Below are positions 15,489 to 45,886 of a stretch of 64,000 nt of DNA, piece by piece (the stretch's first letter is position 1; every line of letters starts with the position of its first letter). The stretch comes from an uncultured Pseudomonadota bacterium (GTDB lineage Bacteria > Pseudomonadota > Alphaproteobacteria > Rs-D84). The stretch covers positions 2,843 to 66,842 of the forward strand of contig OOHM01000001.1 of the NCBI GenBank assembly GCA_900320405.1, in the 5' to 3' direction. The translations under genes and the position numbers were made by a program. Under the pieces are notes generated by a model that saw only the letters and a program-made list of their open reading frames with translations, was not told where the DNA came from and searched no databases.

Positions 15489-15520
15489 AACGGATGCGAA
15501 TGCATCCGTTATTTTTTTTA
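15489..15520 (+). terminator. Intrinsic terminator
   Basis: AACGGATGC-gaat-GCATCCGTT plus T run. Confidence 0.75.
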
Positions 15521-15522
15521 TT

Positions 15523-15645
15523 GGGTGGTCAATTTAATCGTACCTTTTTGTCCAGTACTTTTTTTGATAAATGCGATTCAGTAAAATCAATGACTTACAA
15601 AATCACGGGGGTGGTCAAAATAAAGGTACCTTTAATGCCATAATA
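15523..15645. promoter_or_regulatory. Putative invertible promoter (paired serine-recombinase sites), locus A
   Basis: GGTCAATTTAATCG-TA-CCTTTTTGTCCAGT and GGTCAAAATAAAGG-TA-CCTTTAATGCCAT, centres 86 bp apart; same half-sites as at 39557-39676; IHF consensus match at 15585-15597. Confidence 0.6.
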
Positions 15646-16305: not shown

Positions 16306-17640
16306 ATGAAACAAAAATTGGTTTCTGGGTTGGGAATTTTATTGGTTTTACCGGCGTTTGCGGGCGCGCGATTGCCCACGGTGAACACCGCACGGGCGGC
16401 GGTTTCGGCGCGTGCACAATATGGCGTGGTGCCCGTTGTCGCAAAAAATACAACCACACAACCGGTTGCGGTTGAATCTTTGTCGCGCACGGCGACAAAT
16501 AAAAAGCGCGTCGTTGCACGCACATCAAAACCCAAACCGGCGCCGAGTAAAAATATTTCTGTGGATACCGGTGAAAAAATCGCCGCGAACAGTGAATACC
16601 TGGTGCCGAATCGCCCAAGTTCTGATCTTTGGGCAAAAAACGATACACCGTTGCGTATGCCGCGCGCCAATGAATTTTCGGTGATTACTTCAAACGATGC
16701 GTTGCCCGAAGAACACATTGCCAATGCGTCCGGGACAAACACCGCGAACGAGATTACAGAATTGTCGGCAAAAACATCTTCGTTGGATGCGCAAATTGCG
16801 CGTTTGATGGAATTGCAGAAACGTGCCGATGCATCGGTCGCATCGCGTCACACACGCCATACCGAATTGGCGGATGAAAAAATCGCCTATACGCCGGAAT
16901 CCGCCGTATTGCCGATGCGTGAAGAAATTCCAGAAAATGTTATTAAACCAAATATCGCGAACGCCGATGATGGCGTGCATGTCGCGCGTGTCGTTGTTCC
17001 GCGTGACGATTTGATTGGTGGCGATGTTGTGCGTCGTGCCGTTAAAAAGGATAACGAAACCAAAATTCAAGAGGTTCGCGAAGATATGACAAAAATGTCC
17101 CCGGCGGAATTGCGTCGCGCGTTTCGCAAAACATTCTTGTCGGAAAATAAACACCTGTCGACATATCCAATTGATGATAGGTTCGATGTGGCCAGTGATA
17201 TAGGCACATTTACCGAAGGTTTTACATCGGCGCGTGACCTGTCCGAAGATGCGGAAAAAATAAGACCGTTGGAAATTAAAATCGGTTTCAAAAATTCTGA
17301 TTCGGCATTGTCACGTGAAAATTATAATTTATTGTCGGAATATGCGGGCATAGTTGTTGCAAATCCAAAACGTGCGATTCAGGTTGCAATTCCGGTTGCC
17401 GCAACACAAACATCAACTGCGCGCAAATTGGCGGCACGGCGATTGGCCATTGTTGAACAGGTTTTGCGTGATACCGGTGTTTCCGAACAACGCATTGTTC
17501 CCGTTTTGTCGCAACGCGATGAAGAAGGTTTTGTATTGCGTATAATTTCAAATGAACAATTTGAAACACTGACCAAACAAAAACGCAATATGTTCGGTGA
17601 TACCGTTGGTTCCAAGACATATAAAAGTATGAGTTGGTAA
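16306..17640 (+). CDS. Secreted protein with OmpA-like C-terminal domain
   Basis: Signal peptide; IGFKNSDSALS..RKLAARRLAIVEQVLRDTGVSEQRI resembles OmpA_C. Confidence 0.65.
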   Translation: MKQKLVSGLGILLVLPAFAGARLPTVNTARAAVSARAQYGVVPVVAKNTTTQPVAVESLSRTATNKKRVVARTSKPKPAPSKNISVDTGEKIAANSEYLVPNRPSSDLWAKNDTPLRMPRANEFSVITSNDALPEEHIANASGTNTANEITELSAKTSSLDAQIARLMELQKRADASVASRHTRHTELADEKIAYTPESAVLPMREEIPENVIKPNIANADDGVHVARVVVPRDDLIGGDVVRRAVKKDNETKIQEVREDMTKMSPAELRRAFRKTFLSENKHLSTYPIDDRFDVASDIGTFTEGFTSARDLSEDAEKIRPLEIKIGFKNSDSALSRENYNLLSEYAGIVVANPKRAIQVAIPVAATQTSTARKLAARRLAIVEQVLRDTGVSEQRIVPVLSQRDEEGFVLRIISNEQFETLTKQKRNMFGDTVGSKTYKSMSW

Positions 17641-38375: not shown

Positions 38376-38462
38376 TGGTGGGAGTGGGTGGATTCGAACC
38401 ACCTCAGGCTTAAGCCAACAGATTTACAGTCTGCCCCGGCTCTCCAACTCCGGCGCACGCCC
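38376..38462 (-). tRNA. tRNA-Tyr(GTA)
   Basis: GCAGA-CTGTAAA-TCTGT anticodon arm, long variable arm, GGTTCGAATCC, CCA. Confidence 0.95.
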
Positions 38463-38508
38463 AGAACTTAACTTTTGTGGCCTGCCACACGCGGCCTTTG
38501 GCGAAGTG

Positions 38509-38583
38509 TGGTGCGGGCAGCGGGACTCGAACCCGCACATCAAGCTTGGAAGGCTTGCGTACTAGCCCTTGTACTATGCCCGC
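38509..38583 (-). tRNA. tRNA-Gly(TCC)
   Basis: GCGGGCA..CAAGC-CTTCCAA-GCTTG..TGCCCGC-A-CCA. Confidence 0.95.
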
Positions 38584-38787: not shown

Positions 38788-38915
38788 ATGACACACGATG
38801 AACTGTGGCGGGCAATTGTTAAATTGGCGGCTTCAAAAAATATGTCTTGTTCAGGATTGGCCAAGTTTGCAGGTCTGTGAAATTTATGCCGGACACAAAT
38901 CCACAGAAAAGGTAA
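38788..38915 (+). pseudogene. Internally deleted copy of the 33030..33275 HTH gene
   Basis: 100 bp identical (38778-38877), then a 118-nt deletion giving TGA after 30 codons; 3' 38 nt retained. Confidence 0.85.
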
Positions 38916-38926
38916 CGGCGGTCGTA

Positions 38927-39532
38927 TTACGCCCGCCATTCCATACGCCGTGCAAATCTGCGTATAGTTCCGCGCTGAACATGGAAATTTTGCGCGATAT
39001 ATGATATCGACAATCCCCTGTCCAACATTCTACGAAGAATCAATTTGTTTCGTGTCAATTTCAATTTCTTGGTCTGCGAGGAAAACGGTCGCCCCAGTTT
39101 TCGTCCACTGGCGCGCAGGTTGTCCAAAGACGCTTTGGTTCGTTGACTAATCAGGTTGCGTTCAATTTCCGCCGACAACCCAAATGCGAACGCCATAACC
39201 TTGCTTTGAATATCATTACCCAATCTATAGTTTTCTTTGATTGTCCAAACCTGGCAATCATTGTTCAGGCATCCTTCTAATATTCGCATTACCTCAAGCA
39301 TTGATCGCCCCAGTCGCGATATTTCACACGAAATTAAAATATCGTGCGGGTTCAATTCAGTTAGCAATTGCCCCAGCTTTCGCATATGCAAGGGTTTTCG
39401 TGAAGAAATAGTTTCTTCAACCCAACGGTCTATCTGAATTTTGTTTCGTTTTGCAAATTGTTTTATTTCATAGTGTTGATGTTCACAAGTCTGCTTGTTA
39501 GAACTGACACGAATGTATCCAATTACAGCCAT
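38927..39532 (-). CDS. Serine recombinase, Mpi-like master DNA invertase
   Basis: GYIRVSSNKQ catalytic Ser, EISRLGRS, VWTIKENYRLGNDIQSKVMAFAFGLSAEIERNLISQRTK, C-terminal GRP-HTH. Confidence 0.88.
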   Translation of the reverse strand: MAVIGYIRVSSNKQTCEHQHYEIKQFAKRNKIQIDRWVEETISSRKPLHMRKLGQLLTELNPHDILISCEISRLGRSMLEVMRILEGCLNNDCQVWTIKENYRLGNDIQSKVMAFAFGLSAEIERNLISQRTKASLDNLRASGRKLGRPFSSQTKKLKLTRNKLILRRMLDRGLSISYIAQNFHVQRGTIRRFARRMEWRA

Positions 39533-39556
39533 TTTATATCCCCTTTTTTGTTTATA

Positions 39557-39676
39557 ACTGGTCAAAATAAAGGTACCTTTTTGTCCAGTACTTTTTGCAG
39601 AAAAATTATCTAGTAATTTCAATGGTCAAATTTTTTACGGAAGCCCTGGATAAAAAGTTACCTTTAATGTCATCAT
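39557..39676. promoter_or_regulatory. Putative invertible segment (paired recombinase sites), locus B
   Basis: CTGGTCAAAATAAAGGTACCTTTTTGTCCAG and inverted partner CTGGATAAAAAGTTACCTTTAATG; centres 85 bp apart. Confidence 0.65.
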
Positions 39677-39708
39677 ATAAGGTGTACAAAAAAGGGAGAA
39701 AATCAAGT

Positions 39709-39939
39709 ATGAAACGCATATTTTTATTTGTCACCGCTGCATCAATTATCGGTATTCCGGCATTTGCAAATACAGTTGTCACCAGCCAAACATATGTTGA
39801 TAGCGCGGACGCATTAAAACAGGATAAAATCACCGCCGGTATTGTTTATGCCAAACAATCCAAAAAGGTCTGTGTGCGGTGGTTGGATAATGCCGAACAA
39901 ACCGATGCAAATTGTTTGTTATGGAATTTACCGGACTAG
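39709..39939 (+). CDS. Minimal secreted VTSxxYVD-family protein
   Basis: Signal peptide, NTVVTSQTYVDSADALKQD, CVRW..ANCLLW; 76 aa. Confidence 0.75.
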   Translation: MKRIFLFVTAASIIGIPAFANTVVTSQTYVDSADALKQDKITAGIVYAKQSKKVCVRWLDNAEQTDANCLLWNLPD

Positions 39940-40190
39940 CGTTTAATAGTCTTTTGTGGATTACTGTTTGGAACGAACTTTGCGAATTCACCCAATGTCA
40001 TATGTAATGCGTTCATCACGCACGCAATCGTATATGTTGACGGCCAATGTGGTGAACCATCGCGATTCGTGCGCTTGCTTTTGTTAAATGTTGTAGAATC
40101 CAACCCGGACAACCGTGCCAGGCCCGAACAAGACATATTCTTCCATCGTGCAATATTTGCAATTCCCACCCATAAATCATTATGTGTCAT
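39936..40190 (-). CDS. HTH regulator, paralog of 33030..33275
   Basis: MTHNDLW..SGLARLSGLDSTTFNKSKR..HWPSTY; GGGGG RBS. Confidence 0.85.
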   Translation of the reverse strand: MTHNDLWVGIANIARWKNMSCSGLARLSGLDSTTFNKSKRTNRDGSPHWPSTYTIACVMNALHMTLGEFAKFVPNSNPQKTIKR

Positions 40191-40336
40191 AATCCCCCCA
40201 TTTGTTATTATGAATATATTCTGCCACATTTTGGGGATTCGGTCAAATAATTCTAGTGTTATAAGAAATATGTCTTAAAAAATATGGCGCTATATGGTTT
40301 TTGCGTTTTTGAAACGAATCGTTTTTTGGACAATCG

Positions 40337-43142: not shown

Positions 43143-44450
43143 TTATTTCTTGCTTTCTTTTAACGCCTTGATAAATGCTTCCGCTTTTTTCTTGGTGTCA
43201 TTATATACGGTTTTCAAATCTTTTTGTAAATCGGACCCAATTGCATAATCTATGGCGCCACCAATGGTTTTTGCGAATTCTTCGGCGTGTGCGGCGATGT
43301 ATGCAACCAAAGCCCCCGTCAATAATAATGTCACAACATCGACATTTAACACGGTTATTAAATGTGTTTGTGAATTTAATTGAACGGCCGATGCCAACAA
43401 CGCGCCGGCGATGGCGATTATAATAGATAAAGATATAAAATAAATTGCCGCATCAACAAACTTTTTAATTTGTGATGACAGGTTTGATGATTTGAATAAC
43501 CCCAAAAAACCGTTGTATATGTCGCCAGCGATACCTTTATAAGATGTTTTGTTTACGGTTTCTGCGATGGCGGTAAACGGCAACATAATTACTACTAAAA
43601 ATAAATCTGCAATAACACCAAACGCAACAAACAAAAATTTATACGCCGTGTATACGAACAAACACACCAATATTAAACCAATCAGTAATGTGAAAGTGCT
43701 GGCCCCAAGACCGGATAAAACCAGCCCCCAACCGAACTTTATTGCGCCATAGTAAAATCCCGACAATCGTGCCGGCACGCACATTATGTTTGCGGCAAAT
43801 TCCGGGGTAAATATTTGGTTGGTTCCAAGATGCGTTGTTGCGTACGCGTGAATCGCCGCGCAGTTATCTGCCAACGCATATCCACCGACATCGGTTGTCG
43901 CATTCAAAATCAAATTTGATACATATGAAGAAAACCCAAATATCGGTCCCATAATCGCACCGAAAAACCATTGGATTCCGCCACCCAGCAAAATCAACCA
44001 AATGGCAAGTATCGCGCCTTTCTTGGTAATTTCTTGAAATGCGTCCATTGGTTTTGTCTTGCCACCATCTGTAATCATTTGATATGCGTACAACATAATC
44101 CAAAACATAAACGCGATGACCAAAAATATATTTACAAAACGCACCAAAGAATTATCAAGAATTTTTGCCACATATGACAATGCGCGCACAAATACGATTC
44201 CCAAACGCGCCTCGATTGGAACACCGGTTTCTATATATTCGTGACCATAACTGGATTCAAATTCATTCAAATCATTTTGAACATTTTCCAACAATTCTGC
44301 GCGGTTATGTTCGGTTGCCCAGGTGCCATATTCGCCGATGTCACCGGTCGTCAAATTACTTGTGGTGTCCGCGATGCTTGATGTCGCAAACATCGTCATC
44401 ACGGATGTGATGCATATAATCGATAAAAATCTTTTTATAATTTTCTTCAT
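43143..44450 (-). CDS. Polytopic membrane protein, VirB6/TrbL-like
   Basis: Multi-TM protein; hydrophobic core ..LFLVVIMLPF.. shared with neighbours. Confidence 0.55.
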   Translation of the reverse strand: MKKIIKRFLSIICITSVMTMFATSSIADTTSNLTTGDIGEYGTWATEHNRAELLENVQNDLNEFESSYGHEYIETGVPIEARLGIVFVRALSYVAKILDNSLVRFVNIFLVIAFMFWIMLYAYQMITDGGKTKPMDAFQEITKKGAILAIWLILLGGGIQWFFGAIMGPIFGFSSYVSNLILNATTDVGGYALADNCAAIHAYATTHLGTNQIFTPEFAANIMCVPARLSGFYYGAIKFGWGLVLSGLGASTFTLLIGLILVCLFVYTAYKFLFVAFGVIADLFLVVIMLPFTAIAETVNKTSYKGIAGDIYNGFLGLFKSSNLSSQIKKFVDAAIYFISLSIIIAIAGALLASAVQLNSQTHLITVLNVDVVTLLLTGALVAYIAAHAEEFAKTIGGAIDYAIGSDLQKDLKTVYNDTKKKAEAFIKALKESKK

Positions 44451-45886
44451 TTTTTGTTTATCAATTTATCTGCCAATTCTTGTGGTTTTTGCCATGTCAT
44501 TTTTGCCATTTTTTTAAGGTCGCCCCCGAAATCGTCCACACCGCCTTTGCCGTCTGATTTATTAAATGGTTCAAACGGTGGGACACTGACCATCAATTTA
44601 TCGATGCGCGGACTTAATACATAGAAATAAATAAACACCAACCCCGCCATCAAAATCAAGAAACCAAATCCATCACGCATAAAATCGAATGCACCGGGAT
44701 ATCGTGCTTCAACGACGGTCTTGCGTGATTCAAAACATTTTTTGAATGTGTCTTTATCAATTTCACCGTTTGACTGGGTTGATTGTGCTTCGCATATTGC
44801 AAAAGTATTTTTTACAGAAAGTGTTTCATCGGTTGCGACACTTTCCGTCCCCAACAACGGTGGAAACAGACCGGCACCACGGAATATTTCGGAACCGGCA
44901 AATGATATAATCGCAAAGATAATAACAACTTTTAACGAAATGCCTATAACCTTAATTGCCGAATCGACCAACATAGTAATAGAATTCTTTAACGCACTGG
45001 ACGCAATTTTCCATGTTTTTTCAAATGCAGATGCCGCAACAATCAACGGCAAGAATATCACCAAAAACACCAATTTGAATATGACCGATAAAATTTGAAA
45101 GAACAAATCAAATCCCATTACAACAAACATTATTACAACCAATAACCCCGCAACCCATGTAAACACGCCGCCACCAATTCCCATCCATGCATAATTCATC
45201 AATGCGAATCCGCCGGCGGCACCCGCCAACATAACCGTATTTATATTTCCAACAATGCACATAAATGAATTTGCAACCGGTGCCATTGCATTTTCAGAAT
45301 CAAATTTTGTCGGCACGCATTTTGTTGAATCTGAAACATTTGTCGCCGCCATTGATAATTCTGTCCCAAGATACATAACCGGTGCAATCGTCACATTGGA
45401 AAGTGTTTTTATTGACGATACCCCACCCATACCAAATGCGCCAATCAATGCACCAACAATCATAACACGCACACCCTGACGCCAAACGGTATCGAACCAC
45501 GGTGCAAATTCTAATTTTTTTTCTTTTGTGTCCAATGCGGCGGTATCACTGGTCGCTTTGGCGATATATTTAATCGTATGAATAACAATAAATATGCCGA
45601 ACCCAAACACCATTATTATCCAAAGGTTTTCTAAAATCGCATTCCAGAATTTTTCTGCCGCCACACCCAACACAACAAATAAATCATTTACATATCCGCA
45701 CAGAAAACATCCATTTGCAGATGCGATGTTTCCATCCGTTGCACCAATAGATTTTAGAAAACTGTCCATACTGGTATATGTTATTGATGCATTGCCAATA
45801 GAAGAACTTACATACCAAATACCGACGCCCAACGCAATTGCGCCAATAAGAAACCGAACAAGATAACCCAATAATAATTTTTTCAT
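44447..45886 (-). CDS. Polytopic membrane protein, VirB6/TrbL-like
   Basis: CFLC motif; FLPLIVAASAFEKT core. Confidence 0.55.
   Translation of the reverse strand: MKKLLLGYLVRFLIGAIALGVGIWYVSSSIGNASITYTSMDSFLKSIGATDGNIASANGCFLCGYVNDLFVVLGVAAEKFWNAILENLWIIMVFGFGIFIVIHTIKYIAKATSDTAALDTKEKKLEFAPWFDTVWRQGVRVMIVGALIGAFGMGGVSSIKTLSNVTIAPVMYLGTELSMAATNVSDSTKCVPTKFDSENAMAPVANSFMCIVGNINTVMLAGAAGGFALMNYAWMGIGGGVFTWVAGLLVVIMFVVMGFDLFFQILSVIFKLVFLVIFLPLIVAASAFEKTWKIASSALKNSITMLVDSAIKVIGISLKVVIIFAIISFAGSEIFRGAGLFPPLLGTESVATDETLSVKNTFAICEAQSTQSNGEIDKDTFKKCFESRKTVVEARYPGAFDFMRDGFGFLILMAGLVFIYFYVLSPRIDKLMVSVPPFEPFNKSDGKGGVDDFGGDLKKMAKMTWQKPQELADKLINKK

Follow-up and report, generated by a model that had tools for sequence, protein, structure and literature searches.

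A 64,000-nucleotide stretch of DNA (referred to below as the window; contig OOHM01000001.1 of assembly GCA_900320405.1, from an uncultured alphaproteobacterium of the lineage Rs-D84) encodes a small serine recombinase next to a pair of short inverted sites, which bound a candidate invertible segment. Taken together, the evidence makes it quite likely that this recombinase serves an Mpi-type multi-locus DNA-inversion (phase-variation) regulon, which would lie outside the Bacteroidales, have protein genes as its targets and use unusually short invertible segments. In the genome to which the window belongs (G000; 914 kb, 4 contigs, 93.6% complete) the paired sites recur as a module at 24 loci, a single gene matches the Mpi family model, and both orientations of the segment are found among the paralogous loci and in related genomes. 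The preliminary description of the window had guessed, from one locus, at a master invertase whose targets are scattered and lie ahead of protein genes; the genome indeed holds 24 such loci, all belonging to one gene family, and the one Mpi-like gene.

An Mpi-like serine recombinase

The recombinase gene is located on the minus strand at 38927-39532. Its open reading frame (ORF) spans 38927-39622, and with the ATG at 39532 as start codon it encodes a protein of 201 amino acids with the N-terminus MAVIGYIRVSS. The best-matching model was NCBIfam NF009949 ('master DNA invertase Mpi family serine-type recombinase'), which covers the protein at positions 2-197 of its 203 with a score of 260.7 bits (E 8.5e-78). 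This is 11 bits short of the curated cut-off of 272 bits, and the runner-up family reached 26 bits. Eight relatives of the recombinase scored between 247.5 and 296.3 bits, two of them above the cut-off (273.3 and 296.3) and six at 247-270 bits. The Pfam domain Resolvase covers residues 3-144 (107.5 bits) and is followed by weak C-terminal matches to the helix-turn-helix (HTH) domains HTH_38 and HTH_28 over residues 165-197.

The solved structures of Gin, Sin, gamma-delta resolvase and Tn3 resolvase matched the recombinase with only 25-33 bits, Gin (4m6f) being at 33.4 bits (E 4e-07). In the alignments, R8-V9-S10 take the place of the catalytic RVS motif that Gin and gamma-delta resolvase share, and the motif SRLGRS stands for their DRLGRS. 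Judged by its sequence, the recombinase is a genuine Mpi-like enzyme, though at the edge of the equivalog model, because NF009949 is matched from end to end at a score that the solved relatives do not approach. The likeness to Mpi that had been proposed from a conserved block is therefore also seen in a profile search. The window recombinase is the only NF009949 match in G000. Five further recombinases are encoded in this genome, one large serine recombinase (535 amino acids) and four tyrosine recombinases, none of which adjoins a switch.

The assignment to a gut alphaproteobacterium in the preliminary description agrees with the origin of the relatives, which are Candidatus Enterousia or Alphaproteobacteria metagenome-assembled genomes (MAGs) from ruminant, horse and human guts, and with the recovery of the stretch itself from bovine gut metagenomes.

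The switch beside the recombinase gene

The recombinase gene and a gene of the VTSxxYVD family (39709-39939, plus strand) are divergently oriented, as had been described, and between them lie two sites with centres 85 bp apart. The cores of these sites are AAAGGTACCTTT at 39569-39580 and AAAGTTACCTTT at 39654-39665, and comparison by eye gave the same 2 mismatches between the 21-nt partner site and the reverse complement of the first that had been reported. The sites are thus present and inverted as proposed, but they are not simple palindromes, the segment being actually bounded by a 29-bp and a 26-bp site. Site 1 (39559-39587), with the sequence TGGTCAAAATAAAGG-TA-CCTTTTTGTCCA and its central TA at 39574-39575, forms the left arm of the inverted repeat, an architecture that returns at all 24 loci. 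Site 2 (39647-39672) reads TGGATAAAAAGT-TA-CCTTTAATGTCA, with the central TA at 39659-39660, and its core carries one change (G to T) compared with the family consensus.

The candidate invertible segment between the two central TAs (39576-39658) is rich in A/T tracts and is homologous to segments at 13 other loci, which we call B-type; its orientation is the one termed 'forward'. The recombinase-adjacent switch is a diverged form of this type. A repeat search returned arms of 35 nt each at 39559-39593 and 39641-39675, with 77% complementarity, and the pattern AAAGKTACCTTT had three matches in the window, the third at 15622, where 100 shuffles gave an expectation of 0.01. As site 1 starts 27 nt 5' of the start codon of the recombinase gene, the promoter of this gene is expected within the segment or on its far side, and autoregulation would be possible.

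A paired-site module at 24 loci

The core is found 21 times in G000 as an exact match and 25 times when up to one mismatch is allowed. All of these matches except C4 319028 are embedded in conserved flanks, and their recurrence is therefore far beyond chance. Together they make up the paired-site module at 24 loci, spread over all 4 contigs at a density of ~26 per Mb. The module starts with a terminator-like hairpin of the upstream gene (e.g. 15489-15510), followed by site 1 (TGGTCGAWWTAATCG-TA-CCTTTTTGTCCA), a short A/T-rich segment and site 2 (TGGTCAAAAAGG-TA-CCTTTAATGCCA). It ends with a conserved leader (...CATAATATATGTGTATAAAACAAGC...AAGGAAGGGATATG) and a gene starting MRIPILTFGAIASILTINSV.A-DTT.VTSxxYVD.

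The site centres are 85-86 bp apart across the modules, and the sites have the shape of a crossover site of small serine recombinases, with two ~12-nt half-sites that contain an A-tract and are placed around a central dinucleotide TA. The half-site sequence is TGGNCAWWAAGG, and the left half of site 1 is 3 nt longer, which gives the length of 29 bp. Two segment types can be distinguished. In the B-type site 2 is symmetric and has 26 bp, whereas in the A-type the left half of site 2 likewise has the long form. The forward orientation is seen at 12 B-type loci (B-forward) and at all 10 A-type loci (A-forward), the reverse orientation at the other 2 B-type loci (B-reverse).

The second switch in the window is of the A-type and corresponds to locus C4 18382 of G000. 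Its site 1 (15526-15554), TGGTCAATTTAATCG-TA-CCTTTTTGTCCA, is preceded by the hairpin at 15489-15510, and its site 2 (15612-15640) is present in the 29-bp form TGGTCAAAATAAAGG-TA-CCTTTAATGCCA, with the centres 86 bp apart. Downstream follows P0001 (15680-16186, plus strand), a full-length member of the target gene family.

Orientation of the segments within the genome and in relatives

At both B-reverse loci, C3 265670 and C3 371921, the B-forward segment is present as its reverse complement, and the change of orientation is confined exactly to the stretch between the cores. The inner half-sites provide a marker for the two ends of the segment. At 12 of 12 B-forward loci the half-site beside site 1 is TTGTCC, while the one beside site 2, read as the reverse complement, is TTGACC at six, TTATCC at five and TTGTTC at one of the loci, and never TTGTCC. 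At C3 371921 the sides of TTGTCC and TTGACC are swapped, as predicted for a crossover within the core; at C3 265670 this marker is uninformative.

Reversed segments were also found in two relatives. Genome G063, from the same genus, has at least 10 sites with the core AACGTT, with a central AA in site 1 and a central TT in site 2; the two sites are therefore inverted relative to each other. Of its 10 loci one is flipped (L037). Genome G085 encodes a recombinase with 79% identity to that of the window, its sole homologue there, and contains 24 distinct loci with the core GGTACC, of which 19 are A-forward, four are B-forward and one is A-reverse (L277). The segment at L277 matches the reverse complement of the A segment almost perfectly; inversion thus also affects the A-type.

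To compare the switch that adjoins the recombinase gene, 80 related loci from species-representative genomes were surveyed. A marker-based count replaced an exact-inverted-repeat search, which was too noisy in such AT-rich DNA, and was applied to the 69 loci with at least 200 nt of upstream sequence, the other 11 being too short. In 34 of these loci the marker GAACGATWAAATCAA is located beside the recombinase gene (unflipped), in nine its reverse complement is located beside the downstream gene (flipped), and 26 show neither arrangement. The nine flipped loci align better to unflipped ones as the reverse complement, for example L205 with L218 (60 versus 19).

The stretch was also traced in 20 bovine gut metagenome runs, none of which was listed as an RNA dataset. 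Their Logan contigs end where a repeated switch is reached, as at 977 and 1015 of L024. In one of these runs (X4) a contig of 710 nt connects position 5778 of L024 to position 16866, joining the front of an A-type switch and its leader to the gene that in G000 follows a B-type switch, with 25 differences. This contig could represent a paralogue or a different pairing of switch and gene in that strain.

Further variation at the switch loci

Several of the loci differ from the standard module. Four loci of G000 (C3 175890, C3 320385, C3 325768 and C3 409174) have a deletion that starts in or beside the core of site 2 and includes the leader; at three of the four the start codon and part of the signal peptide are removed as well. 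Failed recombination may have left them as scars, or the loci may be silent copies of the gene. At C4 80068 and C4 211087 a GC-rich insert of ~90 bp (..CCCGGCC..GGGACCCGG..) is placed in the leader, between switch and start codon, and similar GC-rich pieces occur in many leaders of G063 and G085. The insert looks like a small repeat element or a structured leader.

Similar repeats are found at the C1 end, the C2 start, the C3 start and end and both ends of C4. Three contig ends of G000 run from a switch into near-identical 5' parts of genes, and all three overlap one and the same end of C3 with 76-99 identical bases. In addition, both ends of C4 are inverted copies of 163 nt (98%) that match a family gene. 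The overlaps may reflect either repeat collapse or alternative joins.

The loci were also compared between species. Behind one shared upstream gene (82-89% identity at the DNA level) there is a B-reverse switch in G000, an A-forward switch in G085 and no switch in G063 (L024:820-1100 versus L294 and L295), and the second B-reverse locus has no counterpart in G085 or G063 (L025:7000-7350 versus L296 and L297). As far as these alignments indicate, switch loci are gained, lost or re-typed between species. At L278 and L283 of G085 a divergent pair of family genes has a double switch in common that consists of three sites, the middle one of which is a perfect palindrome and separates an A-type from a B-type segment.

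Proposed mechanism

We infer from these arrangements that the segments are flipped by the Mpi-like enzyme, that flipping still takes place today and that it affects transcription. The single recombinase would recognise a hix-like site composed of two ~12-nt half-sites around TA, one half of which is sometimes 3 nt longer, and strand exchange at the two TA centres would flip the short segment between the inverted sites. The segment is asymmetric, with the inner half-site TTGACC, followed by a -10-like TAACAT, at one end and TTGTCC at the other. Depending on its orientation, the segment would therefore direct a promoter, or an element of one, at the gene or away from it, and each cell would express its own subset of the secreted, Cys-rich VTSxxYVD family.

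Since a terminator precedes most modules, transcription of the family genes is expected to start in or after the switch. A consensus scan pointed to two possible designs. In the B-reverse orientation TTGACC-18-TAACAT lies within the segment and is directed at the gene, and in B-forward it is directed away from it. Across site 2 the scan gave TGGACA-18-CATAAT (10 of 12 positions, with TG) in B-reverse versus TGGTCA (9 of 12) in B-forward. Both designs would make 'reverse' the ON state, an assignment in which we have low confidence; it would fit an assembly in which most loci are in an OFF majority.

Several observations weigh against inversion as an active means of transcriptional control. In the A-type switch the consensus scan found no promoter, and matches in such AT-rich DNA are close to chance, with shuffle means of 0.7-1.4 per region. 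The 18-nt spacer of the hybrid -35/-10 design fits G000, but by eye the spacer would be 21 nt in G063 and G085 unless another -10 element is used. With 85-86 bp the segment is very short for a serine-recombinase synapse, and with a palindromic TA at their centre the sites lack a polarity of their own. The sites at the two B-reverse loci of G000 are mutated, with the core AAAAGTACC and an altered site 1 at one locus and a change of the central TA to TG at the other; these may be inversions of old date that are now locked. The 10 A-type loci of G000 all have the same orientation, with site 2 sharing the long-short polarity of site 1. Finally, no mixture of orientations within a population was seen in the Logan contigs, which break at the switches and for which no strand-change joint was listed, and the one raw-read run, X24, gave 0 aligned reads.

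Alternative explanations

Some of these points would equally be expected if the paired sites were a fixed regulatory module, an operator or binding sites for the recombinase or another protein, which duplication and gene conversion had carried along as the gene family spread; the reversals would be rare historical accidents, with no flipping today. The strong skew of 22 forward loci among the 24 of G000, the mutated cores at the two reversed loci and the lack of mixed orientations in the Logan contigs all fit such a module, and site 1 beside the start of the recombinase gene could serve autoregulation. An assembly shows only the majority orientation, however, and a biased switch would give the same skew. 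Reversals that end exactly at the cores are seen independently in three species and affect both segment types, the recombinase-adjacent switch is found in the two orientations at a ratio of 34:9, and the dyad geometry typical of recombinase sites is kept in both sites at 24 loci. The central AA and TT in G063 fit recombination sites and not operators. We regard a fixed module as unlikely, though less so than the other alternatives.

The sites might instead act mainly in recombination between loci, through large inversions or through shufflon- or cassette-like swaps of upstream contexts and switch segments among family genes, with local flipping as a side reaction. One core with a palindromic TA is common to all sites, so that any pair could recombine, and near-identical genes are found behind different switch types; C1_58171 (B) and C3_260 (A), for example, show 100% identity over a length of 63 amino acids. 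The gene body at the C3 end that overlaps three switch-bearing contig ends, the orthologous position that is B-reverse in G000 and A-forward in G085, the four loci lacking the leader (three also the start codon) and the divergent double switches of G085 with their common middle site could all be read in this way. Yet the contig ends can be accounted for just as well by the collapse of repeats in a MAG built from short reads, and gene conversion explains the mismatch between genes and switch types. No listed joint links distant loci in inverted order, and at the only long skip, that of run X4, the two joined repeats have direct order and the strain shows 25 differences. Recombination chiefly between loci is for us an improbable account of the module.

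It is very improbable that the enzyme is the resolvase of a mobile element and that the sites are either subsites of res or the termini of a small mobile repeat: the gene does lie near two tRNA genes and between a Cro/C1-type HTH gene and its degraded copy, and the unequal half-site spacing recalls res subsites, but no transposase is adjacent (the neighbours are a DnaQ-like exonuclease and a UvrD helicase), there are two inverted sites in place of three directly arranged ones, the module stands before 24 paralogous genes and not at element ends, and the similarity to Tn3 and gamma-delta resolvases amounts to 25-32 bits compared with 260 for Mpi.

Local inversion by the Mpi-like recombinase thus remains the preferred explanation, and it may have a wider form. 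With a common core and a symmetric TA at every site, the same enzyme could also recombine between loci, thereby moving switch types or promoters and inverting large stretches of the chromosome, and the copies without start codon could be a silent reservoir. Phase variation and antigenic variation would then be combined in one engine within a reduced genome, possibly the densest inversion regulon known (24 switches, ~26 per Mb, one recombinase, ~85-bp segments). We offer this wider form as a speculation that is more probably wrong than right by a clear margin.

Site cores and recombinase lineage

The core is GGTACC in G000 and G085 and AACGTT in G063. In a group of loci whose recombinases are ~70% identical it is AAAGGAACGATT or AGAACGAT/ATCGTTGG (GAACGAT/ATCGTT), and in a group with ~53% identity it is CCAAGG or CCTAGG. 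By this comparison the site cores change along with the recombinase lineage. In a search of 61 genomes of the genus, the G000-type site was present in three, with 33 matches in G000, 10 in G063 and 1 in G011; the other site types of the genus have 0-3 copies per genome. An expansion to 10-24 or more targets is seen solely in G000, G063 and G085, and since the site type has 0-3 copies in most genomes of the genus, the many-target arrangement is regarded as a clade-specific expansion.

The local versions in the genus (Candidatus Enterousia) resemble the system of the window in having an orthologous recombinase (50-79% identity), an adjacent pair of inverted repeats and then a signal-peptide gene, and in occurring in both orientations (34:9). 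They differ in that a single neighbouring switch of ~130 bp is present; L186, for example, has exact arms of 12 nt that are 120 nt apart. In most of the genus, where these site types are rare, the recombinase would be a local invertase with one adjoining switch.

One locus labelled Bacteroides (L221) has a recombinase 70% identical to that of the window and an upstream layout like that of L014, a locus of the present genus. It is probably a mislabelled bin and was not used as a Bacteroides reference. A metagenome scan with a degenerate 21-mer gave at least 120 stretches, and 0 of the 80 listed loci (L056-L135) contained the site motif; the pattern was too loose and returned chance matches.

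The target protein family

P0001, the product of the gene behind the second switch in the window, has 168 amino acids, with a signal-peptide-like N-terminus, the motif DTTVTSKQYVD, a variable middle part and a Cys-rich C-terminus. Its 189 homologues are all unnamed or 'hypothetical' proteins from Alphaproteobacteria MAGs. Invariant columns in the family are V26, T27, S28, Y31, V32, D33, R69 and four Cys. The gene beside the recombinase encodes a short member of 76 amino acids, which was recognised by BLASTP against P0001. The N-terminus of this ORF shows 40% identity over 55 amino acids (E 2e-05) and begins with a hydrophobic stretch followed by NTVVTSQTYVD; a second match covers the motif C..LWNL.D (E 0.001).

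The preliminary description had called this a surface-protein gene. The signal-peptide-like N-terminus is the one feature that suggests secreted or surface proteins.

The family proteins had no Pfam match and no accepted NCBIfam family; the NCBIfam model BRANT was rejected with E 0.008 and 17 bits versus a cut-off of 44. A search of the ESM Atlas gave no usable match. The AlphaFold2 model of a family protein is weak, with a mean predicted local distance difference test (pLDDT) score of 67 and a predicted template modelling (pTM) score of 0.28, and Foldseek against the PDB returned 0 matches at E <= 0.001. A similarity of the last ~35 residues to cystine-dense peptides had an E value of about 1 and was not taken as evidence.

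Comparison with known inversion systems

To our knowledge, global 'master' invertases are textbook knowledge for gut Bacteroidales only. Like Mpi of Bacteroides, the recombinase described here is a small serine recombinase, its best match is the NCBIfam family of Mpi, at 11 bits under the curated cut-off, and its gene adjoins one of the targets. In both cases one gene is accompanied by many dispersed, short regions with inverted repeats upstream of surface-related genes. The differences are the phylum (Alphaproteobacteria, with a reduced 0.9-Mb genome), the core GGTACC and the distance of 85-86 bp from centre to centre, as well as the targets, which are 24 paralogous genes for small secreted proteins here and polysaccharide operons in the case of Mpi. 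Invertible segments in Bacteroides have roughly 170-230 bp.

The Hin/Gin/Cin/Pin invertases have in common with the present system the serine chemistry, two ~12-bp half-sites with an A-tract around a 2-bp centre and the position of the gene beside the segment, and TGGTCAAAAAGG is a sequence that we take to resemble a hix half-site. They differ in their low similarity of ~33 bits and in having one target compared with many here, and the TA centre in G000 is palindromic. Unlike in Hin/Gin-type systems, the 83-bp segment has no room for a gene or a Fis-bound enhancer. An arrangement of the Tn3/gamma-delta res type was not found either: the two sites are inverted, and the genes around the recombinase encode HTH proteins, tRNAs, an exonuclease and a helicase.

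In RecV of Clostridioides difficile and in the Mycoplasma vsa/vsp systems one recombinase also acts on several dispersed surface switches. These systems, like Tsr0667 and Tsr19 of B. fragilis, differ from the one in G000 in using tyrosine recombinases and in having fewer targets per megabase. Tsr0667 and Tsr19 appear as other multi-target invertases in passages of PMC4747536. According to a passage of PMC11602134, >75% of the 10,983 PhaseFinder inverton sequences in its core dataset are <300 bases long. Candidatus Enterousia is placed in the order Rs-D84, with genomes <1 Mb, in published passages that make no mention of a recombinase, inversion or phase variation. No publication was found that ties Enterousia, Rs-D84 or RF32 to DNA inversion, and supplementary inverton catalogues (e.g. 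that of PMC11602134) might list such loci.

The Mpi enzyme family appears to have been recruited independently in a reduced-genome gut alphaproteobacterium, in a lineage without a cultured member. What the system would diversify is a family of small, secreted proteins rich in Cys. This points to variation of the surface or secretome as a key trait of these minimal gut bacteria and gives a lead on niches that are attached to the host or to other microbes or are exposed to phages. One genus would moreover provide a natural series from a local invertase with 1 switch to a master invertase with 10-24 or more, with co-varying cores, which should be useful for studying how specificity changes. The 85-bp segment would probe the lower size limit of serine-recombinase synapsis, and the compact, orthogonal pairs of invertase and site are candidate genetic switches.

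Other features around the recombinase gene

Two tRNA genes (Tyr and Gly; 38376-38583) are located just before the recombinase module, and a search of Rfam over 15000-41000 returned these two tRNAs and no other family. A DnaQ-like exonuclease and a UvrD helicase are also encoded nearby, with no transposase adjacent to the recombinase gene. The ORFs at 43143-45886 were considered as VirB6-like and dropped, as Pfam gave no support. The recombinase module is flanked by inverted copies of a Cro/C1-type HTH gene, at 38788-38880 (plus strand) and 39936-40229 (minus strand). The left copy is a remnant, the 30 N-terminal codons of which are 60% identical to the N-terminus of the right copy, and by eye an out-of-frame piece that follows this remnant resembles the C-terminus of the right copy.

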